From: Patescibacteria group bacterium
Lineage (GTDB): Bacteria; Patescibacteriota; Microgenomatia; UBA1400; PJMF01
DNA: 64,000 nt
Assembly (NCBI GenBank): GCA_039934415.1
Contig: JBDTME010000001.1
Location: 137,417-201,416 of the forward strand
Direction: 5' to 3'
Shown here: in pieces, positions 5,710 to 63,789 of the stretch
Position numbering within the stretch: the first letter of the stretch is position 1
Layout: each line of letters begins with the position of its first letter
Position numbers and translations under genes: made by a program
Notes under the pieces: model-generated
The model's input: only the letters and a program-made list of their open reading frames with translations
Told to the model about the DNA's origin: nothing
Databases searched by the model: none

Positions 5710-7014
5710 ATGAAACTTCTTTACTCCTCCACTTTTTTATATCAGGCTCATGGGGTAACTCATGGTATCAGCAATGAGACCGTTAATGAAAACAAGAAGA
5801 AAGTTGAAGGTGCACTCACCCGAGTCGATAAAAAGGTAGAAAATAAAGAGTACGGTTTTATCAACATTTTATCTGATAAAAAAATGTTGAAGCAAATGGA
5901 GACTGTATTTCACAGTATTCGATTCGCAAAGACTTTAGTCGTGGTAGGAATAGGGGGTTCAGATCTTGGTGGACGAGCAGTTCAACAAGCATTGGAGATG
6001 GATAGACCTGCCATGGACGTCTTTTTCCATGGGGATTCGACTGATCCTGTAGCTATTACTCGATTATTACGTCAGATTGATCTAGATGAGACAGTCTTTT
6101 GTATTATTTCCAAATCTGGGGAAACAATTGAGACAATCTCACAGTATGTTTTGTTTAAAGCGATCATGAAGCAACAGACTGACGAGTGGGCAAATCATTT
6201 TGTATTTATCACCGATGCAAAAAAAGGAATTCTTCGTGAAGAAGCAGTTGAACATGATATTTTGACCTTACCAATTCCTGATGATGTTGGGGGTCGTTTT
6301 TCAGTTCAGACGACTGTAGGACTTTTTCCTTCGCTTGCCATGAGTGTCGATGTTGAGCAGCTTTTAAAAGGGGCAGAGAGTGTAATCAAGGAGTACCGCC
6401 AAATAGCAAAAGATATTGCTATGGATCAATTTTTATTGTACTCACAAGGCATAAAAGTAAATATTTTAATGCCCTACTCAGTTCAACTTGAAGAATTTGC
6501 GCGATGGTATCGTCAACTTTGGGCAGAATCATTGGGCAAACTAGGGGATAAAGGTATTTTACCTATTCAAGCAAGAGGTCCAGCAGATCAGCACTCTCAG
6601 GTTCAGTTTTATACACAAGGTACACTTCTCCACTCATTACTCTTCTTACGTTTAGAAAAGCGTGAGGATGATTACACACTCGATGAAGTCGATATCCCAG
6701 CAGTCAGTTACTTAAAAGGACTTTCGTATCACAAGATTATCAATGTTGAGCAAGAAGCCACTGCTCTAGCTCTAAAAAAACTAGGTAGACCATCTGCAAC
6801 TTTATCCTTAGATACACTTGATGCATTCGGACTAGGCCAGCTATTTATGGTTTTTGAATTAGCTGTCGTCTATTTAGCTGAAATGTTGGAAGTTAATGCT
6901 TTCGACCAGCCAGGAGTCGAAGAAGGTAAAGTAATGATGTACGCATTACTTGGACGATCGGGCTATGAAGACAAAAAGAAAGAGATAGAACAACTCATGA
7001 AAAAAGGAGATTAA
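5710..7014 (+). CDS. pgi: Glucose-6-phosphate isomerase (bifunctional-type short PGI)
   Basis: 'GIGGSDLGG' at nt 5947-5973 is the PGI signature. Further PGI-like regions include 'SKSGETIET' and 'GGRFS'. Start placed at the internal Met (MKLLYSS...), because the listed ORF start at 5611 overlaps the upstream kinase by 56 nt. Confidence 0.75.
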   Translation: MKLLYSSTFLYQAHGVTHGISNETVNENKKKVEGALTRVDKKVENKEYGFINILSDKKMLKQMETVFHSIRFAKTLVVVGIGGSDLGGRAVQQALEMDRPAMDVFFHGDSTDPVAITRLLRQIDLDETVFCIISKSGETIETISQYVLFKAIMKQQTDEWANHFVFITDAKKGILREEAVEHDILTLPIPDDVGGRFSVQTTVGLFPSLAMSVDVEQLLKGAESVIKEYRQIAKDIAMDQFLLYSQGIKVNILMPYSVQLEEFARWYRQLWAESLGKLGDKGILPIQARGPADQHSQVQFYTQGTLLHSLLFLRLEKREDDYTLDEVDIPAVSYLKGLSYHKIINVEQEATALALKKLGRPSATLSLDTLDAFGLGQLFMVFELAVVYLAEMLEVNAFDQPGVEEGKVMMYALLGRSGYEDKKKEIEQLMKKGD

Positions 7015-8492
7015 TTTAGAGGAGTTGTACTTGGCTTTGTTAAATCAATGATGATATAGACAGGTGTTTTCTCGATTACTGTATATCTGTTTTCCAAGTC
7101 GTGCGCTTCATCATCATAATTGGTTGAAACATAAATAGTTGCACCTTTTTGAATTTTGTCTTCAATATCTACACCTATGGGCCACCCTGTTCGATTGGTT
7201 TGAAACAGAAAGTATGTATCACCATCAGCAGGTGCAATAACTTTTGCATCAGTTGGTGTAAGTCTGTCAACGACTTGACCAGCTTCAACATAGTCCCAGT
7301 GATTTACATTGAAATTCCCTTTAAGTTGTTGCCACGCGAGTAGTAACATCCCTACGTTTAAACTTACTACAATTCCTAGTGCTATTTTTTGGCTAGAGAG
7401 TAGATTGGTTAGTATTTTTAGTAACTCCCAACTACCAAGTGAAATAGAGATACAAACAATAGGAGTCATTAAATTTTGGTAGTAATCGTGCTGCACATTT
7501 CCTGTTGCGATCACGGAAAAAAAGAGAGCAATGCTCAACCACCAGAAAAGATAGACAACTTTATCTCGGCTTATTCTTACGAATGCCAGTGGCAAGAAGA
7601 GTATTCCAATATATCCTAAAAACATTTTAGTCAGTCGTTCATAACCCAACCAACGAAACCAAGCAGGTCTGAATCTGATACCATTACTATTAAATAGCCA
7701 AGTTAAGGCGGGAATACCTTCAGGGTATTGTGCAATCCACTTCCTCCAATAATACAGGGGTATGAATGCAATCAGAGCGTATGAGATCAGACCCAGAAAA
7801 AACTGTGCAGAAAGAAATTTTTGAACATCTTTTATTGTTTTAAACTGAAATAGGATTAGGCCTAAATAGACTGGCGCGAGAAAGGCAACGAATGGTTTGA
7901 GAAGTAGTGCAAGTGAAAGACCCACAGCAGACACGAGTAACCACTTTAAGTTTTTTGTGCTCAACCAATTTGAAAAACCTAACAATGAAAATGTTGAAAA
8001 AAATAACATGTATGGTTCGGGCAAAATTGTGCGTGAGTAGTAAACAGAGTATGGCAAGACCGCAAACATGATCGCTGTTACAACAGCAACTCTTTTTCCA
8101 GACAAATTTCTCACTAGGAAATATAAACTCAATAAAGTTCCCAGTGAGACAAGATTTGATAAGAAACGGCTAGTAGGCACAAGTGGTAAAACAGGGATTA
8201 CTTTTAACACAACTGCAGTAAAGGCATTAATGAATGGAAACTCCACCATCCTGTAGCCATGTTGTGCGTTGTTAAGGTTATTGGGAATTGTAGAAAGATC
8301 TTGATAAGTTGGGTGAAGTAGGTCGATACCGTGTTTTAGATATTCACGAGTTACTGAAGCAGTATCTGATTGTCGCCAGCTATGCCAATCAGCCAAAGGA
8401 TAATTAATGCGATAGAGTCTGACCACGAAAGCTACCAGGACAATAAAAGCAATCAGTTTCCACTCATGTTGGGCAATTTTTGATGTGGTCAT
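7011..8492 (-). CDS. GT-C fold membrane glycosyltransferase (PMT_2 / ArnT-like)
   Basis: 493-aa polytopic membrane protein with 10+ predicted TMs. The first extracytoplasmic loop 'DWHSWRQSD' is acidic, as in ArnT/PMT catalytic loops. Soluble C-terminal domain. One of many paralogous GT-C-like proteins in the window. Confidence 0.5.
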   Translation of the reverse strand: MTTSKIAQHEWKLIAFIVLVAFVVRLYRINYPLADWHSWRQSDTASVTREYLKHGIDLLHPTYQDLSTIPNNLNNAQHGYRMVEFPFINAFTAVVLKVIPVLPLVPTSRFLSNLVSLGTLLSLYFLVRNLSGKRVAVVTAIMFAVLPYSVYYSRTILPEPYMLFFSTFSLLGFSNWLSTKNLKWLLVSAVGLSLALLLKPFVAFLAPVYLGLILFQFKTIKDVQKFLSAQFFLGLISYALIAFIPLYYWRKWIAQYPEGIPALTWLFNSNGIRFRPAWFRWLGYERLTKMFLGYIGILFLPLAFVRISRDKVVYLFWWLSIALFFSVIATGNVQHDYYQNLMTPIVCISISLGSWELLKILTNLLSSQKIALGIVVSLNVGMLLLAWQQLKGNFNVNHWDYVEAGQVVDRLTPTDAKVIAPADGDTYFLFQTNRTGWPIGVDIEDKIQKGATIYVSTNYDDEAHDLENRYTVIEKTPVYIIIDLTKPSTTPLN

Positions 8493-8494
8493 GA

Positions 8495-10333
8495 TTATTG
8501 TTTTGGTTTTGGTAATACCGCAGTCTCAACTTTTGAACCTGGTAACTGTGGCCGCATCTTACCTTCTGCTAACTCTCTAGCAAAATAAGAGATGACGAAT
8601 CCACTAAGAGCCCAGTATGTAAAGGCAATTTTGGATGAGGCATAGACGTCAATGTAAACAGCATTCACCAGTAAAGCCACACTTCCTGTTACAAAACCGA
8701 TGGCTACTGCTTTGGCAAAAGATGAAGCTGAACTCAGTAATATCTTACCACTCAAAAACATTCCTATGACAATCGTGCCATAAAAAGTGATAACACCTAG
8801 CAGTCCTGTTTCACCTAGTGTCCTGAGAAAATTATTATCAGTACTTTCGGCCTCTGTAAAATCATCGACGTTGGCTTTAGTTAATGTTGCATAACCAGAG
8901 CCAAGTAGTGGGTTACTTTGGAAGCCGCGTATAGCTTGCGGCCAAAGTGTGTCTAGTCGAATCGCCATAGAAAGACCATACTTGAGTGCATTTTCAGAAT
9001 AGACTCGATCTCTAGTAAAAGACGAAGTTGTAGCGACTCCACTTGCACTCACGGTGGTTACAAAGACTGTATCTGGTACTTGAACATAGACGTCGGACGG
9101 TTGTTGAGTTGTAGGGCGTTCATCTGACGGAACGAGCACGTGCGTATTTTCCTGATCTTCTGCAGTAACAGCATGGCCGTTTTCTGGTGGTTTTACGTCT
9201 GGAAGTTTTGGTGTGTATTTTTGAATGATCGCGCTGAAATTCCCTTGCAACAAACTTTTACGACTCTCGTTCAAGCTGTCGTATGTATCCATTAATGCCG
9301 GATGAGGTTGAAGGATTTGTAAGAATCGCTCAAAAATAGAGTCACCAAATGTGAAAAACATGTATAAGATCATGAACGCAGTCAAAGATCCACGACTAAA
9401 TCCCCACCAAAGTTTCCTTTTCCAAGTAGATTGTTGAGCGACAAACAGTGCAATGAGCAGCATTGCGCCTACCACAAAGCCAGCAAACGAAGCTCTGGAA
9501 GCACTCATGATGAGTAGCCACAGTCCGGCTGTGTACGAGATGAAAAGTGGCACTTTCCATCGCCACTTCTTGGTAGCAAAGAAAATAGCAAGTAACATTG
9601 GCAAGGCAACAGCTAAATAACCGGCCATGTCATAGTGACCACCAAATGTAGATTGAACACGTGCATGTTCTGTTAGATACAGACGTTGTCCCTTACTAAA
9701 CTCACGGTTCATTGTGGAATACAGTGGCCAATAAAAAAACTTTTGGCCGTAACCATACATGGAAATAAGTACCACTGTGGTTGCAAAAATGGCTAGCATC
9801 CAAGTGAAATCTTTTTTTGTTTTGACGGCAGAATAAGCGACAAAGAAGAGTGAGAAATATTCTAAATATCTAAAATAATGCAAAAGAGTTTTTCCTACAT
9901 GAAGCGGTTGTAGAGGAATAGTTTTAGTAATATAGACTGCAGAGATGGTGGATAAGATTCCTACGATTGAATAGGCCAATATTATCCAAGTAAACGGTGT
10001 TTTCCATTGAGCTTTTTTTCGCAGGATTTGTATACCGTAGATCACTATGGTTGCCGCTACAAACAGATCCTCTAGTCTGAGTCGAACAATATAACCTGGG
10101 ATAATATCAGCGAGTGGTAGTTTGGGATAAAGCGGGATGAAAGCAAACAGGAAAGCAGATAGGATCAAAAGAATGTGATTGTCCAACCAATGCAACACTC
10201 GTACAAATCTTGAAGATTTTTTTTCACTGATTGGTAAAGATTTACTCATTGATGTACTTTCAATGCGATCAATTTTTACTAGTGGTTGAGAGCCGATTAA
10301 AGGCTTCTTGGTAGATTTTTTTCTTTTCTGCAT
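8495..10333 (-). CDS. O-antigen ligase / Wzy_C-domain membrane protein (WaaL/PglL-like)
   Basis: 612 aa, about 10 N-terminal TMs. A roughly 170-aa Pro/Thr/Ser-rich extracytoplasmic loop is followed by 'NPLLGSGYATL...ESTDNNFLRTLGETGLLG', resembling the Wzy_C 'HNSYLqvlaElGiiG' block, with D where ligases have the catalytic His; more TMs follow. A probable true start is the internal Met (MSKSLPIS...) at about 10249, which removes the overlap with the upstream GT2. Confidence 0.5.
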   Translation of the reverse strand: MQKRKKSTKKPLIGSQPLVKIDRIESTSMSKSLPISEKKSSRFVRVLHWLDNHILLILSAFLFAFIPLYPKLPLADIIPGYIVRLRLEDLFVAATIVIYGIQILRKKAQWKTPFTWIILAYSIVGILSTISAVYITKTIPLQPLHVGKTLLHYFRYLEYFSLFFVAYSAVKTKKDFTWMLAIFATTVVLISMYGYGQKFFYWPLYSTMNREFSKGQRLYLTEHARVQSTFGGHYDMAGYLAVALPMLLAIFFATKKWRWKVPLFISYTAGLWLLIMSASRASFAGFVVGAMLLIALFVAQQSTWKRKLWWGFSRGSLTAFMILYMFFTFGDSIFERFLQILQPHPALMDTYDSLNESRKSLLQGNFSAIIQKYTPKLPDVKPPENGHAVTAEDQENTHVLVPSDERPTTQQPSDVYVQVPDTVFVTTVSASGVATTSSFTRDRVYSENALKYGLSMAIRLDTLWPQAIRGFQSNPLLGSGYATLTKANVDDFTEAESTDNNFLRTLGETGLLGVITFYGTIVIGMFLSGKILLSSASSFAKAVAIGFVTGSVALLVNAVYIDVYASSKIAFTYWALSGFVISYFARELAEGKMRPQLPGSKVETAVLPKPKQ

Positions 10334-11839: not shown

Positions 11840-11875
11840 AAGTGAAATTGGATATACACTTAGATTCTAGCACAC

Positions 11876-17925: not shown

Positions 17926-17932
17926 CCCGATC

Positions 17933-20018: not shown

Positions 20019-20026
20019 AGCAGAAA

Positions 20027-20479: not shown

Positions 20480-20484
20480 GTTGG

Positions 20485-20490
20485 CCTCCT
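20485..20490 (-). promoter_or_regulatory. Shine-Dalgarno AGGAGG for the FMN-binding lipoprotein gene
   Basis: The minus-strand sequence reads 'AGGAGGccaacATG'. Most other genes in the window lack a comparable ribosome-binding site. Confidence 0.55.
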
Positions 20491-20528
20491 ATAATGTATG
20501 TAATATATAGACGAAGATAGATAATACC

Positions 20529-22366: not shown

Positions 22367-22386
22367 ATTTTAATCTCTGAAAATTT

Positions 22387-22900: not shown

Positions 22901-24166
22901 ATGAAGTATTTTCGCTCACTCATATCACATCCCTTTTTAAGAGGAACTTTCATCTTCACATCTCTCTCTTTTGTGGCCAGTTTGTTTAGTTATGCTTTTA
23001 ACTTTTTGCTGGCACACGTTGTATCCCGGACGCAATATGGTGAGTATTCAGCAGCTATTTCGTATTTCTCATTATTCACTGTCCCGTTTGGCGCGCTGAG
23101 CTTAATTTTAATGAAAAAAATAGGCCAAATATCTTTGTCACAGCGGGAAAGTTATGTATTAGCCGTAGAAAAATCGTTCTATCAAAGTATTGCTAAATAT
23201 TTACCACTTATCGCTATCATTTCTTTATTAGTGGGAGTGGTGCTCTTGTTTGTTTCTCGTTTACAACTTTCAAGTGTCGCGTTCGTCCTTGTTTTAACTG
23301 GGATGACTTTTTTTATTACAATTTACACATCATTTTTTCAGGCGAAGAAACAATTTGTATTTGCTGGAGTATTTCTTTGTTTGTTATCTTTGCTCAAAGT
23401 ACTTACTGGCGGAGTTTCGGCTTTTTTCCGAGATGATCTTTGGGAGTTATATCTCATGATTGGAATCATACACGTACTGATGATCTTATTTGCGAAATGG
23501 TATTTGAGGAGAGATGGAAAAAAGATGAGCGTGAATGTTACTTTTCCAAAATTTTCCATTTTAATTGCTCAACAATCTTTTTACATACCGGTTATTACTT
23601 TTCTAGGTTTGGTCGCGATGACTAATATTGATATCATGATTGTCAAACGCTTTTTCGATGCCGCTGACGTAGGTTCGTATGCAGCGATTTCTCTGTTAGG
23701 AAGAATTATCTTATATGTTAGTTTACCTCTAACTACTGTTGCATTTGCTTTTTTCACCGACAAAGAAACAAATAATCACAGTAATTCTGTGCTGTGGATT
23801 AGTTTGGGATTTCTAGCTATTTTAGGAGTCATCAGTGTCGCAGGTTATACGCTTTTTCCAATGTTAGTTGTGAAAATTATTTTTGGGGCACAATATTTGT
23901 CTATTTCTTCTGTAGTTTGGTTAGCTGCAGTGTTTGGTTCTATTTATTCTTTGGCCACCTTGCTTGGTCAATACTGGGTAGCTCAACACCACCCAATTAG
24001 CATGGCTTCTCTATTATGCGCTGCAATACAAGCTGTTTGGTTAATGGTCATGCATGACACGTTTGTCACGGTGTTGTCGATCTCAATTGTGTGCTCAACA
24101 GTCTTACTAGTTATTTACTTGTCTGCCCTCATTTATCACCAAAGGTGGATCTATGTTTCAGCGTGA
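22901..24166 (+). CDS. Wzx-like oligosaccharide flippase / polysaccharide biosynthesis protein (MOP superfamily)
   Basis: 421 aa, about 12 TMs. N-terminal 'LLAHVVSRTQYGEYSAAISY' resembles the Polysacc_synt 'lARlLgpeeyGvys' block. Confidence 0.45.
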   Translation: MKYFRSLISHPFLRGTFIFTSLSFVASLFSYAFNFLLAHVVSRTQYGEYSAAISYFSLFTVPFGALSLILMKKIGQISLSQRESYVLAVEKSFYQSIAKYLPLIAIISLLVGVVLLFVSRLQLSSVAFVLVLTGMTFFITIYTSFFQAKKQFVFAGVFLCLLSLLKVLTGGVSAFFRDDLWELYLMIGIIHVLMILFAKWYLRRDGKKMSVNVTFPKFSILIAQQSFYIPVITFLGLVAMTNIDIMIVKRFFDAADVGSYAAISLLGRIILYVSLPLTTVAFAFFTDKETNNHSNSVLWISLGFLAILGVISVAGYTLFPMLVVKIIFGAQYLSISSVVWLAAVFGSIYSLATLLGQYWVAQHHPISMASLLCAAIQAVWLMVMHDTFVTVLSISIVCSTVLLVIYLSALIYHQRWIYVSA

Positions 24167-24950
24167 CAGCCATTTCTTAAGTCTTATTGTCCCTGCCTTT
24201 CGTCAAGAAAAAACAATCGTTAAGAATATAAAACAGCTCCTGAATGTGTTGGATACTATTCGATACGACTATGAACTCATCATTGTCATTGATGGGAAAG
24301 TTGACGAATCTTTGAAGATTTTAAAAAAAGCGAAATTGGGAAAGACAACAATTGTTAGTTATAAACAAAACCGTGGCAAAGCGTTTGCGATTAGAATGGG
24401 GATGAATCGTGCTAAAGGTGACTATGTCATGTTTATAGATTCAGGATTAGAAATCGATCCAAACGGAATCTCGATGTTACTTGAGCATATGGAGTGGTAT
24501 GACGCTGATGTGATTGTTGGGTCGAAGAGGCACCCAGCTTCTCATGTGAACTATACTTGGCAGCGGAAAATACTGAGTTATGGGTACTATTATTTTGTGC
24601 GATTGTTCTTTGGGTTAAATGTCAGAGATACTCAAGCGGGAATCAAAATTTTCAAGAAATCAGTTTTGGAAAAAATCTTGCACAGATTAGTGGAAAAGAG
24701 ATTTGCGGGAGATTTGGAAATGTTGGTTGTAGCAAGGCAAGTGGGGTCAAGACGTATCTTTGAGGCACCGATTAAGTTAAATTACGAGTTCAGTACATTG
24801 ACTTCAGCTGCTACTTATCGATCGATATTTTTCATTATTGTGGATACGTTAGCTATTTTCTATCGAGCACATATTATTAGATATTACCGAGGGACGCATC
24901 ATCGATTAGTAGAGCCAAAAGACATTCGAATCTACCGTCTGACGAAATGA
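24153..24950 (+). CDS. Family 2 glycosyltransferase, dolichyl/polyprenyl-phosphate sugar synthase-like (DPM1/GtrB/ArnC type)
   Basis: 265 aa. 'LSLIVPAFRQEKTI...IIVIDGKVDES...FIDSGLE' are GT2 motifs. A C-terminal hydrophobic helix 'IFFIIVDTLAIFY' as in GtrB/ArnC. Confidence 0.6.
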   Translation: MFQRDSHFLSLIVPAFRQEKTIVKNIKQLLNVLDTIRYDYELIIVIDGKVDESLKILKKAKLGKTTIVSYKQNRGKAFAIRMGMNRAKGDYVMFIDSGLEIDPNGISMLLEHMEWYDADVIVGSKRHPASHVNYTWQRKILSYGYYYFVRLFFGLNVRDTQAGIKIFKKSVLEKILHRLVEKRFAGDLEMLVVARQVGSRRIFEAPIKLNYEFSTLTSAATYRSIFFIIVDTLAIFYRAHIIRYYRGTHHRLVEPKDIRIYRLTK

Positions 24951-37522: not shown

Positions 37523-38271
37523 TGAAAAGAAACACTCAAACTACAGTTTCGCTAGCTATACTAGTTAAAAATGAGTTCCAATCCTCTGAGGTGATTTTTC
37601 CTCTTATACCCAAAGGCATTGTGGACACTGTTTTTGTTATAGATGGGGGATCTGTAGATGGTACGGTAGAGTACTATAAAAAAAATAATGTACAAGTGTA
37701 TGGTCAATCAGTTTCAGGTTTAGGAGGCGCAGTTTTTGAAGCGAGAAAACGTTGCAAAGATGATTCCTTCATACTGTTTCATCCGGATGGGAATGAAGAT
37801 CCTCTGGACATTGAAATTATTGCATCATACTTGAGAAGAGGTCGTGAATTTGTGATTCCATCAAGGATGATTAAAGGTGCTTGGAATGAAGAAGATACTG
37901 AGTATTTACGGCCTAGAAAATGGTTCAATAAATCAATGGCTCTCCTGAGTAATCTTTTGTGGAATGAGTCTAATCCATTTGTTTCTGAAATAGTACAAGG
38001 TTTCAGAGGAATTCGTTGTGATGTCTTTGACAATCTAAATTTAGATAGAACTGATTGTACTGTTGATTTTCAGATGGTAATTAGAGCTTTAAAACAGAAT
38101 ATCCCGATTTTAGAATTTCCAACGAAAGAAGGAAACCGATTGTTTGGAGAGACTCATTTTAAATCACTTGAGACAGGGGCTAAAGAATTGGACATGTTTG
38201 CTCAAGAAATTTTTAATGAAGAAACTTATTTTGTCGAGGCAAATGCAGCTCAGTTAGTTGAGGCCAGTTGA
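37489..38271 (+). CDS. Family 2 glycosyltransferase-like protein
   Basis: 260 aa. 'VSLAILVKNEF...VFVIDGGSVDGT' is a GT2 N-terminal signature. 'FHPDGNEDP' contains an acidic motif. Confidence 0.5.
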   Translation: MDQNIIHTFKMMKRNTQTTVSLAILVKNEFQSSEVIFPLIPKGIVDTVFVIDGGSVDGTVEYYKKNNVQVYGQSVSGLGGAVFEARKRCKDDSFILFHPDGNEDPLDIEIIASYLRRGREFVIPSRMIKGAWNEEDTEYLRPRKWFNKSMALLSNLLWNESNPFVSEIVQGFRGIRCDVFDNLNLDRTDCTVDFQMVIRALKQNIPILEFPTKEGNRLFGETHFKSLETGAKELDMFAQEIFNEETYFVEANAAQLVEAS

Positions 38272-39474: not shown

Positions 39475-39477
39475 AAT

Positions 39478-40884
39478 TTAAAATTGAAAATAAATAAAAG
39501 CTATTGATCTTTTCACCATTGAAAAGGAAATACTGAAAAAAAGTAGACAACTAAAGAAAATCAATTTCCATACATTGGGTTGAATTGCTTTTAAATTCTT
39601 TTCTTTAATGCATATGATCCAAAATACACCGATTAACCAGGCTGGGATTGTAGCAAATAATATATTTTGGGTTATATCCTCAAGAGGAAAGAAAGTCCAA
39701 GTTGTCATGGCATGGAAAACCAGTTTGGCTTCAGAAAGTGTTTTAAATTTAAAGATTACCCAGAGACTAGACACCAGTATAAATGTCAAAATTTGACGAA
39801 TTCTTTTCGGTAACTTTGCAATAATATTTTGAGGGAGAATTCTTTCTGTTACTAAAAAACAGCCATGAAGTGTCCCCCATACTATATAGTTCCATCCAGC
39901 TCCATGCCAAAGACCAGCTAAAATCATTGTTATAAGTAAATTTAGGTTCGTTCGTATCTCTCCTTTTCTGTTTCCTCCCAATGGGATGTAAATATAGTCT
40001 CTTATCCAAAGAGAAAGTGAAATATTCCACTTTTGCCAAAAATCAGTTATTGAAACAGATGTATATGGTGAGTCAAAATTATCAGGAAAATGAAAACCAA
40101 AGAAAGAAGCTATCCCAATAGCCATTAGAGAGTAACCCAAAAAATCAAAGTACAACCGTAAACTAAAGCTAAGTGTGATAATAACAGCCTTCAGTGTATC
40201 AAGTTGGGTGATTAGGGTATCTAGATGCTCTTCTAATGGAAAAAGCTGATCAGCAATAAATGTTTTTAAAAATAAGCCCACAGAAAAAAACACTAATCCT
40301 CGAAAAAAACTTTGATAATCTACATATCTTTTTTTTATTTCTTGAAATATTTCTGAATACCTCACAATTGGTCCAGCTATTAGGTGAGGAAAAAGAAGTG
40401 CATACACAGTATAGTGAAAAAAATTAGTTGATGCCTTTATTTTTTTCTTATACACGTCTGTTAAATAGCTGATTCGTTGGAAAGTGATAAAGGAGATGCC
40501 TACCGGTAGAAAAATTTCAGTTGTTGAGAGTTTAGCAAGGAAAGTATTAGGGACAAGTAGAAATAGCTGACCGCTTAAGAAGTGTGTGTACTTAAAGTAT
40601 CCCAGTAATCCTAGGTTAGTAACAACACCCATTAGAAAAAACATTTTTCTTGAGTTTAAGTTTCTTGTTTTTCCAATTAACTGAGCAAGACAAAAATCAA
40701 AAAAAACTGGAATGAGTAAAACTTCTATGTTGTTCATCCCAAAACTGAGATAGAAAAGCAGACTGCCTATAATCAGAATTAAGTTAGATAAACGAGCTAA
40801 TCTGGGGGTACTTTGTGTAACTAGATATATTGCTAATAAAATTGGGAAAAAATAAATTAAAAAAAAATAATCTGAGAAATTCAT
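39478..40884 (-). CDS. MBOAT-family membrane-bound O-acyltransferase (AlgI/DltB/PatA-like)
   Basis: 468 aa, polytopic. 'LAGLWHGAGWNYIVWGTLHG' is the MBOAT signature with the conserved catalytic His. Confidence 0.8.
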   Translation of the reverse strand: MNFSDYFFLIYFFPILLAIYLVTQSTPRLARLSNLILIIGSLLFYLSFGMNNIEVLLIPVFFDFCLAQLIGKTRNLNSRKMFFLMGVVTNLGLLGYFKYTHFLSGQLFLLVPNTFLAKLSTTEIFLPVGISFITFQRISYLTDVYKKKIKASTNFFHYTVYALLFPHLIAGPIVRYSEIFQEIKKRYVDYQSFFRGLVFFSVGLFLKTFIADQLFPLEEHLDTLITQLDTLKAVIITLSFSLRLYFDFLGYSLMAIGIASFFGFHFPDNFDSPYTSVSITDFWQKWNISLSLWIRDYIYIPLGGNRKGEIRTNLNLLITMILAGLWHGAGWNYIVWGTLHGCFLVTERILPQNIIAKLPKRIRQILTFILVSSLWVIFKFKTLSEAKLVFHAMTTWTFFPLEDITQNILFATIPAWLIGVFWIICIKEKNLKAIQPNVWKLIFFSCLLFFSISFSMVKRSIAFIYFQF

Positions 40885-50348: not shown

Positions 50349-51539
50349 ATGTTAAAACAACTTTTTTTTCGGTCTGGAGCTTATTTTGTGGGACTAGTCT
50401 CAGTCAAACTTGTTGCGACTTTTTTATTCGTTTTTTTAGCTCGATTTTTGCAACCAGATTTATTCGGAAAGTTGACATACTTTTTGACAATATTGTCGTT
50501 GTTGACCTTGATAACAGACTGGGGATTAGTTCAATGGTTTCAAGTTCACAGAACTTCAACCAACGAAGCAACATTGATTTCAAGGCTTGTGAGTGCCCGT
50601 TTTTTTACATTAACAGTTTCTGTATGTATTTTTCTCCTGTTTTCACTATCTTTTCATTCTTTTAGTCTTGTCGAGTCAGTCTTGTTCATAGCCCTACTTG
50701 TACCTGAGGCATTTCTGAGTATCACAGATGGATATTATTTAGTTCGCCATCGATCTGTTCTAATTGCGTTTAAACAACTGTCGAAATATATTTTTCCAAT
50801 ACTACTGGTTGTTTTTGTTCAAGACAAATTAACAATGCAAAATGTCATACTCAGTTTTTTGATCAGTTCAATTTGTACTTTGGTTTGGTATGTTCCAAAA
50901 AAATTCTTTCAAGTACCCTCTTTTTCGGTTTCCCAAATCAAGGAAACTCTATCAGAGTCAAGTTCGTACGCGACTTTAATACTTACATCCGCTCTCTATA
51001 GTCGAGGAGATGCAATAATCCTCGAATCAAAATTGGGTAATACTGCACTTGGGTTGTACTCTGCGGGCTACCGTTATTTAGATGCAATGAGTTTATTGCC
51101 AGCAGCTTTTGCTCAAAACCTATTTCATATCTCAGCTCAAAAAGAAAGTATAAATAAGCAGAAGATAATCACGATGACTGCTGTAATGGGTGGTTTGGGT
51201 GTTTTGTTTGGAGCATGTTTATTTGTATTCAGCCATTTCCTAACAACCGGATTGTTAGGTAGTGCTTATGAAGGTACTGAGATCATCGTAAAGATATTTG
51301 CTGTGGTTACTGTTCTCCTTTTTATTAACTCTCCATTAAGCACGATTGTTCAAAGCTCAACAGTTGTTAAGCAGTTTCTACCTTGGGGTATTATGAATAC
51401 AGTCTTAAACATTGGTTTGAATGTGGTTCTCATTCCTCTTGCTGGTGGAATAGGAGCAGCTTTCGTCATGTTATTTACTGAAGCGACTGGCTTATTAATC
51501 AATTTGTACTTTGTAAAACAGAGACTAAAAAAAGAATGA
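50349..51539 (+). CDS. Wzx-like flippase / polysaccharide biosynthesis protein (MOP superfamily)
   Basis: 396 aa, about 12 TMs. 'FVFLARFLQPDLFGKLTYF' matches the Polysacc_synt 'lARlLgpeefG' N-terminal block. Confidence 0.55.
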   Translation: MLKQLFFRSGAYFVGLVSVKLVATFLFVFLARFLQPDLFGKLTYFLTILSLLTLITDWGLVQWFQVHRTSTNEATLISRLVSARFFTLTVSVCIFLLFSLSFHSFSLVESVLFIALLVPEAFLSITDGYYLVRHRSVLIAFKQLSKYIFPILLVVFVQDKLTMQNVILSFLISSICTLVWYVPKKFFQVPSFSVSQIKETLSESSSYATLILTSALYSRGDAIILESKLGNTALGLYSAGYRYLDAMSLLPAAFAQNLFHISAQKESINKQKIITMTAVMGGLGVLFGACLFVFSHFLTTGLLGSAYEGTEIIVKIFAVVTVLLFINSPLSTIVQSSTVVKQFLPWGIMNTVLNIGLNVVLIPLAGGIGAAFVMLFTEATGLLINLYFVKQRLKKE

Positions 51540-53997: not shown

Positions 53998-54007
53998 AAT
54001 TTTCTCC

Positions 54008-55228: not shown

Positions 55229-56933
55229 TTTTTGTTGTAGTGCTACTTGTCCATCTATGTTTCAAATACCCAAAACCCAGAGCGATGACTGATATCAAGG
55301 TGATTGAATTACCTATTATGCGAGCTGGTGTCCATTGGGTAAAGGTGGAATGAATCAGAAAAGTACCGATCGGGAGCTCAAACGCAATTCTGCCTTGAGT
55401 TAACTCAGTATTCAAATATTGCACATTTCTTGTTTTTCCATCAGAGCTAACTACACTTGTTTGCCAACCAGAAAATTTCATCGTTGGTTCAATGATTGTG
55501 CTGGGTGTTTCCAAAGATAAAGAGTAGGTACGATGTGAACCCGTCCAATCACTGACTGTTGACTCACCAACACCCTCTATTAATGGTCTTGGTTGCCAGT
55601 CGCCAATGTTTAAATATGTAAATTCTTTTGTTCTATTCTCATTTTGAGTTGAAGTGCTCTGGGGATACAAATCGTAATCAATTTGATTTCTATGAAAAAA
55701 ATCAACTGGTTTGAGCTGACCAATCACATACACAGTAATGAAGCATAGCGCTAACAAGACTTTTTTCAGGTTTCTTGAAATTAGACTTGATGATTCCGCC
55801 CATAATATGGGGACGAGTGCTCCCAAAAGAATAGAAAGTCTCCAAGGAAATTGAATAATCTGTAGTGTAGGCACTAACTTCCAAAAATAGAAAGAAGTGG
55901 GAGTCTGTAAAAATATAAGAATGAGCACTGTTGTTGTCCAGAGCAAGATTTTTGTGGGTACATGGACTTTTTTGAAGAACGACTTGAAAAGAATAATGCT
56001 TGAAATCCAGATGACAAACAAAGTACTTATTCCAAGTTGGAAGCCGAGTGAGTCTACTGGCCCTGGATTTGAGAATCCAAAACCTAGCTGGCCAAATGCC
56101 AACTGATTGATCGTGGCAAAGTGATCAAAGAAATGATTTGCAATTCCAGCATCTCTTACTACAGTTTGGCTTGCTTCAACAAGAGCAGGTAACCAAAACC
56201 AGAGCGATAACGCTAAGCTGTAGAAAAAATTGAGAAAAATTGCAAACACAGCTTTTTTATTTTTATTATCAAATATTTTTACTACAGCAAATAAAAGTAT
56301 GATTGGTAAGGATATAAGAACCGTAACATTGTGACTGAGTAAATAGAGAGATGAAATTGAGATTGTGAACAATGTAGGTTTTTGTTTTTTTATAAGTTCA
56401 TTGATTGACCAAAAAACCCAGGGCAAAAGAGAAGCAGCTAACAACTCTCCCATACTACCTCTGAATAAAATGAGATTAACAATGTACGGTTGAATGCCGA
56501 ACAGCACCATACCTATCACTATAATGAACAATGATTTTCGTTCACTATGAAGCAATTTGTATACTCCCAACAATCCTCCGATGAAACTCATGATACTAAT
56601 TATTTTAAAAGTGGTTTCTGGATTTACCTTGATGAGGCTAAATGGGACTGACAAGAGATTAGGTAATGGATAATTAAAATTGAAGACGGGATATCCGTAG
56701 TGATTCATAAGATTCGGGGCGAATCTCGGCGGAAACTGACCTTCCTTTAAAGCAATTTTATAATTTGCAAAACGAGCAAGATGGTTTTCACCATCATTGG
56801 TATACGGGAATCCAGAACGGAAGTATGTGTGGAATACGACTAAAGTAAGCGAAAATATTAATAGGCTTAAGAGTACTCTCTTCATAGGATATTTCGATAA
56901 ACTTGTACTGTCTCTTGAGCAGCTTTTTTCCAC
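55221..56933 (-). CDS. Polytopic membrane protein with C-terminal extracytoplasmic domain (GT-C-like)
   Basis: 570 aa. First loop 'GFPYTNDGENHLARF' is acidic. The C-terminal roughly 170 aa are soluble. Confidence 0.35.
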   Translation of the reverse strand: MEKSCSRDSTSLSKYPMKRVLLSLLIFSLTLVVFHTYFRSGFPYTNDGENHLARFANYKIALKEGQFPPRFAPNLMNHYGYPVFNFNYPLPNLLSVPFSLIKVNPETTFKIISIMSFIGGLLGVYKLLHSERKSLFIIVIGMVLFGIQPYIVNLILFRGSMGELLAASLLPWVFWSINELIKKQKPTLFTISISSLYLLSHNVTVLISLPIILLFAVVKIFDNKNKKAVFAIFLNFFYSLALSLWFWLPALVEASQTVVRDAGIANHFFDHFATINQLAFGQLGFGFSNPGPVDSLGFQLGISTLFVIWISSIILFKSFFKKVHVPTKILLWTTTVLILIFLQTPTSFYFWKLVPTLQIIQFPWRLSILLGALVPILWAESSSLISRNLKKVLLALCFITVYVIGQLKPVDFFHRNQIDYDLYPQSTSTQNENRTKEFTYLNIGDWQPRPLIEGVGESTVSDWTGSHRTYSLSLETPSTIIEPTMKFSGWQTSVVSSDGKTRNVQYLNTELTQGRIAFELPIGTFLIHSTFTQWTPARIIGNSITLISVIALGFGYLKHRWTSSTTTKNG

Positions 56934-58003
56934 GAAAAACGGTATAACGTTTCGTTATTCAGAGCTACTCTCTTGTTTTTTTCGGCTGAGGATAAATTTA
57001 TTACCCGTTTGATACCATTAGCGATATCAGCGTGTTGTAATCCAACAAATTCAACACCATTACCTCCTATCTCAAGCAACGCAGGTGTGTTGCTCGAAAT
57101 AACTTGAGTACCACACTGCATAGCCTCAAGTAGTGGCAGACCAAAGCCTTCGTATAATGATGGTTGTACATACGCTTCTGCTGCAGTGTAGATAGCTGAG
57201 AGCGATTCTGTATCTTCTTTAGGAACATTGGTTATAAAGTGCACACGATTAGATACAGAGCTAAGTTGTACTTCAATTGCTTTCCATTCAGGGATAGGAA
57301 GAGGCTTAAAATTTGCTCCTACACAAACTAAGTGAATATTTGAATCAACTAAAGCTAAAGCCTTTACTAATTCTGGGATATTCTTGTTATAGTTGATATC
57401 CCCTACGTATAACAAATATTGATTAGGAAGATCATATCTTTTCCTGATTTGAGCTACGACGTGTGCAGAGCTTTTTTTAATTTCTGGATTGCCAGCTAAT
57501 GGAATTGCGGTGATTTTTTGCTGTGGGACTGGCAAATATCTAGTAATGTCTTGTTTTGAAGTTTGTGAGTCGGTTATGACAGCTGCGACACTTTTCAGTG
57601 CTTGTTTTTGTAAAAATAAACCAACATTGCCAGCAATACCTACTGGGTAGTGTGTAGGATAAAGCAAAGGAATCACATCATGAATTGTTACTACGACCTT
57701 CTGTGAGCTTCTGCCTAGGAACTGGTTTATGGCAGGTAATGGCAGTGTTTGTTGAAATAAATTGAAGTAGGGATAGTGAATAATATCAATCCCTTTTTTA
57801 CTCATGAAAGCATTAAATTGCTCCAATCCAATATCTTCACTTGTAAAATATTCATCTTGAGTGTTTTGCAGTTTTTCTAATTCTTGTGACAGGAATTTGG
57901 TATACACTCCAACACCTCTAATGGCATTAGCATTGCGTAGTGGAGATGTTTCGAGTAAAACCTTCATGTTAACTCCTTGTTCTTTTTTTCGAGCAATTCC
58001 CAA
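56882..58003 (-). CDS. Family 4 glycosyltransferase (GT-B)
   Basis: 373 aa. 'YLLYVGDINYNKN...EGFGLPLLEA' with E-x7-E. Confidence 0.65.
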   Translation of the reverse strand: MGIARKKEQGVNMKVLLETSPLRNANAIRGVGVYTKFLSQELEKLQNTQDEYFTSEDIGLEQFNAFMSKKGIDIIHYPYFNLFQQTLPLPAINQFLGRSSQKVVVTIHDVIPLLYPTHYPVGIAGNVGLFLQKQALKSVAAVITDSQTSKQDITRYLPVPQQKITAIPLAGNPEIKKSSAHVVAQIRKRYDLPNQYLLYVGDINYNKNIPELVKALALVDSNIHLVCVGANFKPLPIPEWKAIEVQLSSVSNRVHFITNVPKEDTESLSAIYTAAEAYVQPSLYEGFGLPLLEAMQCGTQVISSNTPALLEIGGNGVEFVGLQHADIANGIKRVINLSSAEKNKRVALNNETLYRFSWKKAAQETVQVYRNIL

Positions 58004-58758
58004 AGTTTTAGATATGACACAGGAAAATATAGGCCGCTATAGAGAGCAAACACAAACCCTGGGTAGCCGTCTACAAAGCCTTTGTGTCGAATGAATATGC
58101 TTAAAAAAATCATTAGAGGTTTGAATACCAAGTAAACGATGGTGTTTTTGATACTTATGTTGACTTTAGCTTCCCGCAACTGAGTTGCTTTTAATGACGT
58201 GTAATCATTCCACTTTCGCAAATATTCAGTAAACGTCGGGCTGCTGTAGTGAAGCAAATGACCATCTGCCCAACCTAAGTCACCATCTACATCCATTTGT
58301 TCGTGCACATCTTTTTGTGGCAAACGAGCTTTGCCGTTTTGGTACAAACGAATAACTGGATCTGGATATTGACCACCTTTTGTTAAAAATTTATTTAAGA
58401 ACCAATTTTTTCTTTTTATCCACCAGGCACTTGGCAGTTTTTTTTCATCGTGATGCATCATCTTCGTATGAACTTGCTGTATGAAATTAGCTAACTCATC
58501 ATCAACTACCTCATCGGCATCAAGCTGTAGTACTAACTCACCTTTCGCTTCGTTCATCGCCAACTGCTTGTTAATATGAAAAACTGGTTTGTTTGTGGTC
58601 TTTATTACTCTGGCACCAAGTTTTTTAGCAATTTCAACCGTATTATCAGTCGATGTACCATCAACCACAATTATTTCATCAGTAAATTTTTTTACCGATT
58701 GTAAACAACGAGCAATATTTTTCTCTTCATTGTATGTAGCTAGAACAACTGAAATCAT
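57964..58758 (-). CDS. Family 2 glycosyltransferase
   Basis: 264 aa. 'MISVVLATYNEEKNIARCLQSV...IIVVDGTSTDNT...LQLDADE' are textbook GT2 motifs. Confidence 0.7.
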   Translation of the reverse strand: MISVVLATYNEEKNIARCLQSVKKFTDEIIVVDGTSTDNTVEIAKKLGARVIKTTNKPVFHINKQLAMNEAKGELVLQLDADEVVDDELANFIQQVHTKMMHHDEKKLPSAWWIKRKNWFLNKFLTKGGQYPDPVIRLYQNGKARLPQKDVHEQMDVDGDLGWADGHLLHYSSPTFTEYLRKWNDYTSLKATQLREAKVNISIKNTIVYLVFKPLMIFLSIFIRHKGFVDGYPGFVFALYSGLYFPVSYLKLWELLEKKNKELT

Positions 58759-58774
58759 ATTTTTTTATAAACAA

Positions 58775-62111: not shown

Positions 62112-63789
62112 GCCAGACTGGCTGACCCTTTAAATCCATAATTGTTTCAATTTCAGTTACATCTGAGAAAAACTGACGCTGCTTATATGTACTAGCAATC
62201 AAACCTTTTTCGTTCCCTGTTAGACTGTCAGAGAAGGTCACATTTTTAAAATTTAAGAATTCGCCTTGATCTTTTGGCGCTGCTGCGTTTTCAGATTGAA
62301 CATCACTTGGGTTAGTTTTTGAAAAAAACCAATAGTACATTGCAGGTCTGCCATACTCACGGGTAATATATACTTTTTCTCCTGATTGCGAGTTATTTTG
62401 AATGCTCTCAACCATTTGCTGATACCCATATTGCCACTCACTAGCATATAGCTTGGGATACGCGAGGAAGTAAAAGTTCAAGTACATGATTAATTCGATA
62501 CAAAATAACACAGCGACACCACTAAGTAGTATCTTTGAAAATGGCATTTTTCTTATATATTGAATAAGAGCAAATAGCCCTAACCCAAGTACACTCATAT
62601 ACACTGGCAAAATAGGTAATGTTCGCAATGCGTGAGGAACCGGCAGAGCTAATGAAGCTGGAATGAGGCCAATAACCCACCAGAGCCATAAAAAATGGTA
62701 TTTGCCTTGCCACTTTTTAATAAGCGTAAAAAGACTAAGAATTAGCAGTACAAAATCAGTGGGAAAGAATAAACCGAAGTACTGAATGGAGTGCCTAAAA
62801 TTTTGATCACCAGATAGAAAAAGAAAATCCAGACGTAAATGAGTAGCAGCGTTGATCATAATTGTTCTTAAGTAGAACCAATACCGATGGAAAAGCAGTT
62901 TTGTTACTACGTTCGATCCAAATTGTTGCATGTAAAAATTGCTTTCCAACACCTCTTTGCCTGTACTAAAAGTCGAGGTTTCTTGTAAACGATGGCCAAC
63001 ACTTGGATCACGAATGAACAACAAAATGGGTAACATTAACCCAAAAGCTAATACTGCAAGCATGCAGATTTGTTTCCAGTTTGTCTTGTACCGTACAATT
63101 AAAGGATATGCTAATACAATTCCGAGCAGCGGAGCGATCACCCGTGTTGCATGGTAGGTGTATGCTGATAAAACAAATAAAAGAACTGTCAAAGTGTAAA
63201 AAGAAAGCATCGCTTTTTTTTGATTCGGTTGAGATTGGACAATACTTCCTGCTCGCAATCCAAAATACACTCCGATACTCAATAACGCGGTCGCTAAATT
63301 CACTTCCCATCCTCCTCTAGAAAATTGTATTGCCCAAGGAGAAAAGCAAGTGATAATCATCGTAAGTATTTCTGGTTGAATCAGGGTTCTCCCCCATCCC
63401 ATCTCACTAGAATTATGAAGTTCTTCAGATTGGAACAAGAGACCAGCTATCTTGCCAGAAAAATAAACAATGAGAACGCCAGCAATCACTGAAGGTATCC
63501 GGACAGACCAGACTGATAAACCAAACACAAATAAAAAAGGAATGATGGAATAGAAATATAAGGCAGGTTTATAATCTCCGAACGACTCAAATGCCACAAC
63601 TGGAAACCAATGCCCATGATGGTCCATGCCAGTTTTTAAAACAGAATACGCATCATAACCCAACGCAGCTTCTTCCCAATATAGAGAGGGTGGGGTCACA
63701 TTCAATTTATATATTCTCAGCACAAGGCTTACCATTAAAATGACGAGAATTAACCCTGCTTTTTTTGAGAATTGAAATGGGATGCGCAT
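62092..63789 (-). CDS. GT-C fold membrane glycosyltransferase (PMT_2/ArnT-like), tandem paralog 1 of 3
   Basis: 565 aa. 'YWEEAALGYDA' EE/DE loop, 'FSRGGWEVNLATAL' and 'PHALRTL' (nt 62617-62637). Soluble C-terminal domain. Confidence 0.55.
   Translation of the reverse strand: MRIPFQFSKKAGLILVILMVSLVLRIYKLNVTPPSLYWEEAALGYDAYSVLKTGMDHHGHWFPVVAFESFGDYKPALYFYSIIPFLFVFGLSVWSVRIPSVIAGVLIVYFSGKIAGLLFQSEELHNSSEMGWGRTLIQPEILTMIITCFSPWAIQFSRGGWEVNLATALLSIGVYFGLRAGSIVQSQPNQKKAMLSFYTLTVLLFVLSAYTYHATRVIAPLLGIVLAYPLIVRYKTNWKQICMLAVLAFGLMLPILLFIRDPSVGHRLQETSTFSTGKEVLESNFYMQQFGSNVVTKLLFHRYWFYLRTIMINAATHLRLDFLFLSGDQNFRHSIQYFGLFFPTDFVLLILSLFTLIKKWQGKYHFLWLWWVIGLIPASLALPVPHALRTLPILPVYMSVLGLGLFALIQYIRKMPFSKILLSGVAVLFCIELIMYLNFYFLAYPKLYASEWQYGYQQMVESIQNNSQSGEKVYITREYGRPAMYYWFFSKTNPSDVQSENAAAPKDQGEFLNFKNVTFSDSLTGNEKGLIASTYKQRQFFSDVTEIETIMDLKGQPVWLVYRAN

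Follow-up and report, generated by a model that had tools for sequence, protein, structure and literature searches.

The GT-C genes of the window

The window, a 64 kb stretch of DNA from a Patescibacteria (CPR) bacterium with a reduced genome, harbors 12 large GT-C membrane enzymes that take up 22,074 nt (34%) of its length and account for 12 of the 52 ORFs with 150 aa or more (Table 1). The initial annotation had counted nine to twelve GT-C glycosyltransferases in a CPR-like lineage; lineage and enzyme class are both borne out, and the count lies at the upper end. All 12 ORFs are confirmed in position and strand, but three of the starts were probably too long. The start of c28072 is placed at 29565 instead of 29631 because its homologs measure 492–508 aa, that of c33646 at 35475 instead of 35649 because the NCBI protein has 609 aa, and that of c31089 at 31113 instead of 31089.

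Table 1. GT-C genes and neighboring glycan genes (GT-C labels give the lower coordinate of each ORF in the window, for c31089 as first read)
Feature	Coordinates	Strand	Evidence
c7011, GT-C glycosyltransferase, PMT_2/PMT type, 493 aa	7011..8492	-	Pfam PMT_2 3e-11, PMT 4e-11
Wzy_C (O-antigen ligase/polymerase-like) membrane protein adjoining c7011	8495..10333	-	Pfam Wzy_C 1.5e-9
c16308, GT-C glycosyltransferase, PMT_2 type, 507 aa	16308..17831	-	Pfam PMT_2 2.9e-8
11-TM membrane protein, possible second flippase (inference only)	22901..24166	+	11 hydrophobic segments
GT2 with C-terminal TM helix, candidate polyprenyl-phosphate sugar synthase	24153..24950	+	PDB matches
c28072, GT-C-fold protein, unannotated family, 497 aa	28072..29565	-	fold
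c31089, GT-C glycosyltransferase, divergent PMT_2 type, 840 aa	31113..33635	+	ortholog carries PMT_2
c33646, GT-C-fold protein, near-orphan family, 609 aa	33646..35475	-	fold
GT2-like, resembles AglJ/dolichyl-phosphate hexose transferase; second candidate lipid-sugar synthase	37489..38271	+	NCBIfam
AlgX-like SGNH (38275-39474) and MBOAT (39478-40884), glycan O-acetylation pair	38275..40884	-	Pfam
c45011, AftD-like GT-C glycosyltransferase, 1134 aa	45011..48415	+	orthologs carry PF11847 GT-C_AftD
c48719, GT-C glycosyltransferase, PMT_2 type, 524 aa	48719..50293	+	Pfam PMT_2 5e-7
Wzx-type flippase	50349..51539	+	Pfam Polysacc_synt 1.7e-12
c54008, GT-C glycosyltransferase, PIG-V/GT87/PMT_2-like, 406 aa	54008..55228	-	ortholog Pfam matches
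c55221, GT-C glycosyltransferase, PTPS_related/AftD-like, 570 aa	55221..56933	-	family members' Pfam matches
GT4 (56882-58003) and GT2 (57964-58758) inside conserved module B	56882..58758	-	Pfam
c58775, GT-C glycosyltransferase, PMT_2-type paralog, 536 aa	58775..60385	-	BLASTP c60378 7e-23, c62092 2e-20
c60378, GT-C glycosyltransferase, PMT_2 type, 577 aa	60378..62111	-	Pfam PMT_2 6.9e-7
c62092, GT-C glycosyltransferase, PMT_2-type paralog, 565 aa	62092..63789	-	BLASTP c60378 6e-53

All 12 proteins are polytopic (7–12 hydrophobic segments each by Kyte-Doolittle), and a Pfam match, paralogy, ortholog matches, or the fold itself assigns every one of them to GT-C. At least two Lys/Arg precede the first TM helix in 10 of the 12, and these basic N-terminal tails suggest an N-in topology, judged crudely by hydropathy and the positive-inside rule only and not by TMHMM. 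The GT-C HMM hits proposed as a check are present: four proteins (c7011, c16308, c48719, and c60378) match PMT_2 directly above the gathering score. The other eight are silent in Pfam on their own sequence; four of them (c31089, c45011, c54008, and c55221) reach GT-C Pfam families through orthologs only, and for c28072 and c33646 the fold is the sole evidence.

The set is more diverse than the PMT_2/ArnT-like paralog expansion first described. Only seven members are of the PMT_2 type, and in an NCBIfam search of the GT-C proteins neither ArnT nor any other model for lipid A modification was matched. Paralogy is recognizable by BLASTP for only three proteins, c58775, c60378, and c62092 (E-values 1e-20 to 1e-53); the 12 together split into seven or more sequence families, none of which detects another. 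No cross-hits were found between the profiles of seven alignments, which comprise six single families and one joint alignment of six PMT_2-type ORFs. Common to every family alignment is an invariant Asp shortly past the first TM helix, accompanied by further invariant polar residues. The “SR(Y/H)..P” block attributed to the whole set is seen in PMT_2-type members only.

Members with family matches

In c7011, the PMT domain is matched above gathering score as well as PMT_2, and a weak Agl23-like NCBIfam match is also present. An “LDEAA” motif follows the first TM helix of c16308, which is adjoined by two GT4 genes. The ortholog of c48719 adjoins flippase and GT2 orthologs at one other locus (L008), and c58775 has orthologs at 14 loci. 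The divergent c31089 carries a 4-TM N-terminal extension, after which the invariant Asp is found, and a 318-aa C-terminal domain. Its own sequence gives no direct Pfam match, but the ortholog P0129 (39% identity, 86% coverage) and a Daviesbacteria ortholog both carry PMT_2, and D148 and an “SKE” motif are conserved in the family.

The largest member, c45011, consists of an N-terminal GT-C module, a predicted extracytoplasmic region of about 670 aa, and a C-terminal TM helix. Its own sequence falls below Pfam detection, but PF11847 is present in most full-length orthologs, some of which are named AftD family, and AftD structures (6w98/6wbx, E 0.002) are the top PDB matches of the family profile. 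Neither c54008 nor c55221 has a direct match in Pfam or NCBIfam. Orthologs of c54008 (36–43% identity) match PMT_2 (three), ALG10 (two), PIG-V (1.6e-7), and GT87 (7.5e-6), and relatives of c55221, which has 15 orthologous loci in CPR genomes, match PTPS_related (3.7e-12) and GT-C_AftD (5.8e-6). The c54008 gene overlaps its upstream gene by 8 nt, and its ortholog is fused to that of c55221 in two genomes (L003 and L007).

Members recognized by fold

Structure comparison places c28072 nearest to the oligosaccharyltransferases STT3, AglB, and PglB, including the AglB C-terminal domain. It is not filed as an oligosaccharyltransferase, since it has only 497 aa, lacks the WWDYG motif, conserves a single acidic residue in loop 1, and has no sequence-level match to these enzymes in Pfam or NCBIfam. 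The structure model of c33646 is of moderate confidence only. Structural matches of the two proteins include AftA, AftB, AftD, EmbA, and PimE as well as the non-catalytic PIG-U/Gab1.

Genomic context and synteny

Two GT2 genes are candidates for lipid-sugar synthases, with every NCBIfam match to such enzymes lying under the cutoff. The product of 24153 finds GtrB sll0501 (5e-12), ArnC (4.6e-10), and DPMS (4e-8) as top PDB matches and resembles PgfS, ArnC, and PpgS in NCBIfam, and that of 37489 resembles AglJ (1.4e-16) and DPhHxTase (5e-6). The GT2 at 57964 is instead closest to GmaR, a flagellin (protein) glycosyltransferase. The 11-TM protein preceding 24153 has no Pfam or NCBIfam match, and no GtrA-type flippase or GtrA homolog was found in the window; a GtrB/GtrA/GT-C triad, considered for 29594-33635, is not borne out. 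Many further GT4/GT2 genes lie in the window together with nucleotide-sugar genes for epimerases, dehydratases (one PseB-like), a DegT aminotransferase, a GNAT enzyme, and a methyltransferase.

The GT-C genes lie in two modules that keep their gene order in other CPR genomes, which contradicts a recent local burst, and GT-C orthologs are kept full-length across distant CPR genomes. Synteny of module A extends to a Daviesbacteria genome, where the MBOAT/AlgX-like pair and a 57% identical ortholog of 37489 are retained. Module B is syntenic at 14 CPR loci with 2–8 GT-C ORFs each, the fewest being on the shortest contigs, and its most conserved gene is the GT2 at 57964 (55–67% identity at the 14 loci).

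Proposed function and alternative readings

The window is best explained, with a probability of roughly 0.7, as a cell-envelope glycan biosynthesis island in which 12 GT-C-fold glycosyltransferases of at least seven families act by the following route. Cytoplasmic enzymes would make and modify the nucleotide sugars, GT4 and GT2 enzymes would put together a lipid-linked glycan, and the GtrB/ArnC/DPMS-like 24153, probably with 37489, would load single sugars on polyprenyl phosphate. Wzx-type flippases would carry the lipid-linked units outward. On the outer face, each GT-C enzyme would use its first-loop Asp to transfer a lipid-carried sugar to a growing wall or surface polymer, or to surface proteins, with the large C-terminal domains binding the acceptor; the STT3-like c28072 possibly transfers a larger unit than one sugar. 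We infer donor, acceptor, orientation, and catalytic activity of the 12 from this context; most likely they assemble or decorate an envelope glycan on the extracytoplasmic side. Wall-polymer glycosylation in monoderm bacteria is known to follow such a scheme, in which a GT-A lipid-sugar synthase works with a flippase and a GT-C enzyme (PMC8035078).

That proteins (S-layer, pilins, or secreted proteins) are the main target, by PMT-like O-mannosylation or in an oligosaccharyltransferase-like manner, is rather unlikely but carries some weight. The many enzymes would then reflect different sugars or acceptor specificities. The PMT match of c7011, the structural neighbors of c28072, and the GmaR-like GT2 of module B fit such a role. 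Also in its favor, protein glycosylation in Caldicellulosiruptor is due to just one bacterial GT39 enzyme (PMC6151902), and for Saccharibacteria glycosylated pilins have been proposed (PMC11623550). On the other side, PMT_2 is equally typical of teichoic acid and wall polysaccharide enzymes (PMC8035078). The Pfam search found neither MIR nor PMT_4TMC, the domains that mark genuine protein O-mannosyltransferases, and c28072 lacks the acceptor-binding WWDYG motif. The O-mannosylation-like reading of the initial annotation is disfavored: the Wzx, Wzy_C, and MBOAT/AlgX genes are polysaccharide-like, the AftD-like enzyme indicates polymer branching, and the context favors glycan-polymer assembly or decoration. 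Decoration of membrane lipids in an ArnT- or PimE-like way is improbable. ArnT belongs to PMT_2, the GT87 and PIG-V families matched by c54008 orthologs act on lipid-anchored acceptors, and CPR cells scavenge lipids that they could remodel; against this, lipid A modification models are unmatched, LPS is not known from CPR, and the large soluble C-terminal domains and AftD-like architecture suit polymer acceptors.

Several of the 12 could also be catalytically dead GT-C folds that act as scaffolds, partner proteins that bind the acceptor, or exporters of polymer; active glycosyltransferases would then be far fewer. PIG-U/Gab1 offers a precedent among the structural matches, the translational coupling of c54008 and c55221 and their fusion in some genomes would suit partner proteins, and a review offers the speculation that small GT-C enzymes might depend on such partners (PMC8035078). 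The invariant Asp and polar residues of every family and the full-length orthologs in distant genomes make this a slim prospect. That HMM-silent members are transporters or permeases is hardly credible. Eight proteins lack a direct Pfam or NCBIfam match, and the suspicion concerns six of them; it is contradicted via orthologs for c31089, c45011, c54008, and c55221 and by fold for c28072 and c33646, whose Foldseek matches include transporters at a probability of 0.16 or below only.

Comparison with known systems

The monoderm transmembrane glycosylation systems (CsbB/GtcA/YfhO, GtlA/GtlB, GacI-L, and Csd pairs) combine a membrane GT-A that makes C55-P-sugar, a GtrA- or Wzx-type flippase, and a polytopic GT-C, often of PMT_2 or YfhO type and sometimes without a Pfam match, that acts on a wall polymer at the outer side of the membrane (PMC8035078). 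The window shares with them PMT_2-type and PTPS_related/YfhO-like GT-Cs, a GtrB/ArnC-like GT2, and a Wzx-type flippase, but no GtrA homolog was found in it. Those systems use one GT-A/GT-C pair per modification, and B. subtilis has three pairs scattered over a 4 Mb genome, whereas here twelve GT-Cs of at least seven families lie within 57 kb, with no more than two or three candidates for lipid-sugar synthases beside them. Enzymes of this kind are known. What is unusual is how densely they are packed in a reduced genome, and no annotation exists for two of the families. Oligosaccharyltransferases differ from c28072 by their WWDYG motif, and the protein O-mannosyltransferases (GT39, PMT1/2/4) differ in domains and context.

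The GT-C set for mycobacterial arabinogalactan/LAM (EmbA/B/C, AftA-D, PimE, and Mpt enzymes) is likewise partly clustered, and in it many different GT-Cs work one after another, outside the membrane and from polyprenyl-phosphate sugars, on the same complex wall polysaccharide. The likeness extends to the AftD family and architecture of c45011 and to the structural matches of c28072 and c33646. It differs in that sequence-level orthology is confined to the AftD-type protein and that the present host has a reduced genome with no evidence of an arabinan or mycolate pathway. To judge from the PseB-like, DegT, RmlD-like, and GNAT genes, the window's sugars seem to be hexoses of the amino, deoxy, or acetylated kind.

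Reading frames and membrane architecture

All twelve candidate GT-C genes (GT-C denotes the polytopic membrane glycosyltransferase fold; genes are named by their left coordinate) are open reading frames on the strands given in the initial annotation, and three of their starts had probably been placed too far upstream. Their combined length of 22,074 nt takes up 34% of the window. Each encodes 7–12 hydrophobic segments by the Kyte-Doolittle scale, probably an undercount, and both AF2 models (c28072 and c33646) take on helical bundles. At least two Lys/Arg residues precede the first helix in 10 of the 12.

The start of c28072 is set at 29565 because its homologs, 492–508 aa long, align from that point; a longer ORF would run into the divergent gene at 29594. 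The start of c33646 is 35475, and an NCBI protein with 100% identity has 609 aa. For c31089 the start is probably 31113. The NCBI gene call for c31089, ABI425_00880, has 682 aa. Nine homologs align over 86–100% of the 840-aa form, and the deposited call therefore seems to be short of about 158 N-terminal residues that make up four predicted TM helices.

Features of the glycosyltransferase region and of related loci
Feature	Location	Strand	Content
Left edge	227-7014	+	Glycogen-synthase-like GT4/GT5, GH57, GH15, BadF-type ATPase/kinase, phosphoglucose isomerase
Genes amid glycan genes	19146-22860		ApbE, lipoprotein-like 150-aa ORF, RnfD/NqrB-like membrane protein, flavodoxin
Low-GC region	28000-50000		GC 0.33-0.36 (0.37-0.41 on both sides)
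c28072	28072-29565	-	GT-C, STT3-like fold
Module A	~29.6-48.4 kb		GT2 (29594), c31089, c33646, STELLO-like protein, AglJ-like GT2, AlgX-like protein, MBOAT, PseB-like dehydratase, GT4, RmlD-like protein, methyltransferase, c45011
Small ORF	30616-31116		166 aa
c31089	31113-33635	+	GT-C (start probable)
c33646	33646-35475	-	GT-C
STELLO-like soluble protein	36521-37522	+	Adjoins AglJ-like GT2
Module B	53-64 kb		Epimerase, c54008, c55221, GT4, GT2, c58775, c60378, c62092
c54008 and c55221	54008-56933		Overlap of 8 nt
Fused c55221-c54008	L003:3293-6106		Two GT-C modules
Fused c55221-c54008	L007:9938-12778		Two GT-C modules
Insertion in Daviesbacteria module A	L020:4743-7124		Carbamoyltransferase, SxtJ-like protein, DUF5989

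Assignment to the GT-C fold

The initial annotation proposed nine to twelve GT-C enzymes of a PMT_2/ArnT-like type. The GT-C assignment holds for all twelve, with evidence of unequal strength that comprises Pfam matches, paralogy, orthologs, fold, and an invariant Asp. Curated GT-C models are matched directly by four ORFs, through paralogy by two, and through orthologs by four; c28072 and c33646 show no sequence-level match to such a model and are placed by the three-dimensional similarity of their models to solved GT-C enzymes. The expected Pfam PMT_2 domain (PF13231) is found above the gathering threshold in c7011, c16308, c48719, and c60378, and c7011 alone among the 12 also matches PF02366 (PMT, N-terminal module); the other eight stay below the PMT_2 threshold on their own sequence. 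Two of these, c58775 and c62092, are clearly paralogous to c60378 (BLASTP E 1e-20 to 1e-53) and, like c31089, are tied to PMT_2 via paralogs or orthologs. Six ORFs (c28072, c31089, c33646, c45011, c54008, and c55221) have no Pfam match even at E ≤10 and none in NCBIfam, and were assigned through relatives and structure.

A genome scan with c55221 yielded 15 CPR loci, from which the c55221 and c54008 orthologs were taken. The c54008 set matches PMT_2 (three members), ALG10 (two), PIG-V (1.6e-7), and GT87 (7.5e-6); in the c55221 set, two members match PTPS_related (3.7e-12) and one GT-C_AftD (5.8e-6). Among ten full-length orthologs of c31089 one matches PMT_2, as does the Daviesbacteria ortholog, and the farther matches are TPR-PMT_2 proteins. 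About 200 full-length homologs were found for c45011, most with PF11847 (GT-C_AftD) and some named as members of the alpha-(1->3)-arabinofuranosyltransferase family; full-length orthologs share 30–53% identity. The best PDB matches of a 41-sequence c45011 profile are the mycobacterial AftD entries 6w98 and 6wbx (E 0.002, mainly over the C-terminal part). The layout of c45011 also resembles AftD: a TM module at the N-terminus is followed by a soluble stretch of about 670 residues and by a last helix at the C-terminus. Its putative AftD membership is carried through orthologs, not by its own sequence. PDB-sequence profile searches with the c55221, c54008, c31089, and c33646 families gave nothing significant, and hhalign comparisons of a six-member PMT_2-type profile with the silent families, represented by single sequences or by small alignments, were uninformative (probabilities <10%).

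An acidic residue after the first helix is a hallmark of GT-C enzymes. D-E or E-E follows TM1 in five PMT_2-type ORFs, and the family alignments show an invariant Asp a short way past the first helix in c55221 (D47), c54008 (D61), c31089 (D148), c33646 (D44), c28072 (D29), and c45011 (D40 and D53). Each family alignment contains this Asp, and on all the evidence taken together the count is 12 of 12. The acidic first-loop motif described earlier is thus recovered as a conserved residue, with the orientation of the loop read from the basic N-tails only. A transporter or permease fold, named in the initial annotation as the alternative, is rejected for c28072 and c33646 by the fold searches; transporters appear in the Foldseek search with c28072 only at probability ≤0.16.

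Two families without a curated model

The c28072 family comprises 635 representative clusters, all “hypothetical,” with members also in WOR-3 and Magnetococcales. It has no Pfam or NCBIfam model, and only 3 of 89 relatives weakly match PMT_2. The AlphaFold model is excellent (pLDDT 96.4, pTM 0.94). In Foldseek, STT3 and PglB fill the first twelve places (TMq 0.53–0.61), and the oligosaccharyltransferases (OSTs) STT3/AglB/PglB are the strongest fold likeness of all families. This backs the weak AglB-S2 match (E 0.89) that was the only one obtained with the c28072 profile against PDB sequences. As modeled, c28072 appears to be a compact version of the fold, C-terminal domain included. The WWDYG motif is absent and aligns with the stretch PHQNTT, which places c28072 outside the OST family. 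Its loop 1 carries a single invariant Asp, where OSTs are defined by DxD/ExD in loops 1 and 2.

c33646 is close to an orphan: a database of 5.8 billion proteins holds seven homologs, none of them annotated, and a metagenome scan gave no relatives. The quality of its model is moderate (pLDDT 68.8, pTM 0.71). Despite the few homologs, a Daviesbacteria genome keeps c33646 beside its c31089 ortholog.

Paralogy and conserved modules

The set had been described as a paralog expansion within about 57 kb, which applies only to the trio c58775/c60378/c62092. All-against-all BLAST and phmmer gave no significant pairs beyond this trio. Profiles of seven alignments, six of single families and one (A1) joining the six PMT_2-type ORFs, which match it by construction, gave no cross-matches within the window. 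Gene order, in turn, is conserved. Module B is syntenic in 14 CPR loci, where its GT2 shares 55–67% identity and one to three additional PMT_2-type copies lie upstream. Each locus holds 2–8 GT-C ORFs, the shortest contigs having the fewest. In one locus (L008) the synteny reaches further to c48719, the flippase, a double GT2, and a c45011-like gene. The c55221–c54008 pair is fused into one protein of 937–946 aa in two genomes, and both profiles match it. Module A recurs in a Daviesbacteria genome with orthologs that are 31–57% identical. From the lack of cross-matches and the conserved gene order it follows that the twelve GT-C enzymes are an old, diverse set kept by selection and not a recent burst.

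The drop in GC across module A could reflect a separate origin or differing constraints. The STELLO-like protein adjoins the AglJ-like GT2 in Daviesbacteria as well; STELLO is a plant Golgi glycosyltransferase family. The insertion in the Daviesbacteria module, absent from the window, suggests a carbamoylated sugar in that genome. Four module B loci (L003, L008, L015, and L016) are deposited as “uncultured Pseudomonadales.” They carry the CPR-type module with orthologs that are 41–49% identical, and the label looks wrong.

Donor supply and comparison with known systems

The closest solved structures to the GT2 at 24153 are GtrB, ArnC, and DPMS, and the GT2 at 37489 has similarity to AglJ and to Dol-P-hexose transferase. 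These two proteins would be natural suppliers of polyprenyl-phosphate sugars to the GT-C enzymes, and they lend indirect support to a putative polyprenyl-phosphate-linked sugar donor. For monoderm bacteria it is established that a lipid-sugar synthase of the GT-A type works with a flippase and a GT-C enzyme on wall polymers (PMC8035078). Because of this scheme and the GtrB/ArnC/DPMS-like and AglJ-like proteins, the GT-C enzymes are proposed to assemble or decorate an envelope glycan outside the cytoplasmic membrane, with putative donor, acceptor, and activity. The closest functional analogues would be multi-component glycosylation systems of Gram-positive bacteria and the Emb/Aft/Pim set of GT-C enzymes in mycobacteria.

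Protein glycosylation by the same enzymes is the main rival to an envelope glycan, or a function parallel to it. The OST-like fold of c28072 and the PF02366 module of c7011 stand beside the lack of any MIR or PMT_4TMC match in the 12 ORFs. Without these domains, membership in the eukaryote-type protein O-mannosyltransferases (GT39, PMT1/2/4) fails. The ArnT-like label (GT83) fares no better because no ArnT NCBIfam model is matched among the 10 ORFs scanned; in the fold searches ArnT is just one among many structural neighbors. Of a Gtr-type three-component system the GtrB-like GT2 at 24153 is seen, no GtrA match occurs in any ORF scanned, and a Wzx-type flippase is present instead. A GtrB/GtrA/GT-C triad of 29594, 30616, and c31089 was rejected, as the GT2 looks rhamnosyltransferase/MftF-like instead and the small ORF at 30616 shows only about two hydrophobic segments, besides lacking a GtrA match.

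The envelope-glycan proposal can be extended to a joint reading, to which we give a tentative probability of roughly 0.3. It describes a CPR assembly line in which a dozen GT-C enzymes, dependent on lipid-linked sugars, would build a complex wall-associated heteropolysaccharide or glycoconjugate outside the membrane and which would include two database-unknown families, one of them an STT3-like transferase with its WWDYG replaced. If true, the c28072 family would be a compact STT3-like transferase whose altered acceptor site recognizes a new kind of acceptor, and the scale of the system would be matched only by the mycobacterial arabinogalactan/LAM pathway.

Implications for CPR envelopes

CPR/Patescibacteria are ultra-small, mostly uncultured episymbionts whose surface is the point of host contact, and to our knowledge next to nothing is known of their envelope chemistry. 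The fold and chemistry seen here are familiar ones; so dense a set of GT-C genes is unusual for a reduced genome, with 22 kb spent on twelve putative extracytoplasmic glycosyltransferases where the main contig measures 510 kb. There are, in addition, two unmodelled GT-C families, one STT3-like and WWDYG-less, and a fused GT-C pair. The modules are kept across distant CPR lineages, which suggests that an elaborate surface glycan is a core trait maintained by selection and not one that could be dispensed with. The two modules, the AftD-like enzyme, the fused pair, and the two unannotated families are targets for further work, and many “hypothetical” CPR membrane proteins could be better annotated. 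The literature searches made found general remarks on abundant CPR glycosyltransferases (PMC5220378) and a description of CPR glycosylation as unexplored (PMC11623550), and no description of GT-C enrichment.

Source lineage and gene surroundings

The guess of a CPR-like lineage was correct. Exact protein matches lead to a Patescibacteria group bacterium MAG at NCBI (locus tags ABI425_00880, _00885, and _00935; contig of 510,469 bp), with relatives among Pacebacteria/Paceibacterota and Daviesbacteria MAGs. Scans of the whole 64 kb gave neither a tRNA gene nor an Rfam family that reached its gathering score. The remaining window is largely devoted to glycan metabolism, with at least six GT4 and at least five GT2 genes, several SDR epimerases/dehydratases, a DegT aminotransferase, a GNAT protein, a methyltransferase, a Polysacc_synt (Wzx-type) flippase, a Wzy_C protein, and an MBOAT/AlgX O-acetylation pair. 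RuvABC and GreA are interspersed among these genes, and the locus is therefore chromosomal. Separate gene groups occupy the left edge and 19146-22860 (see table).
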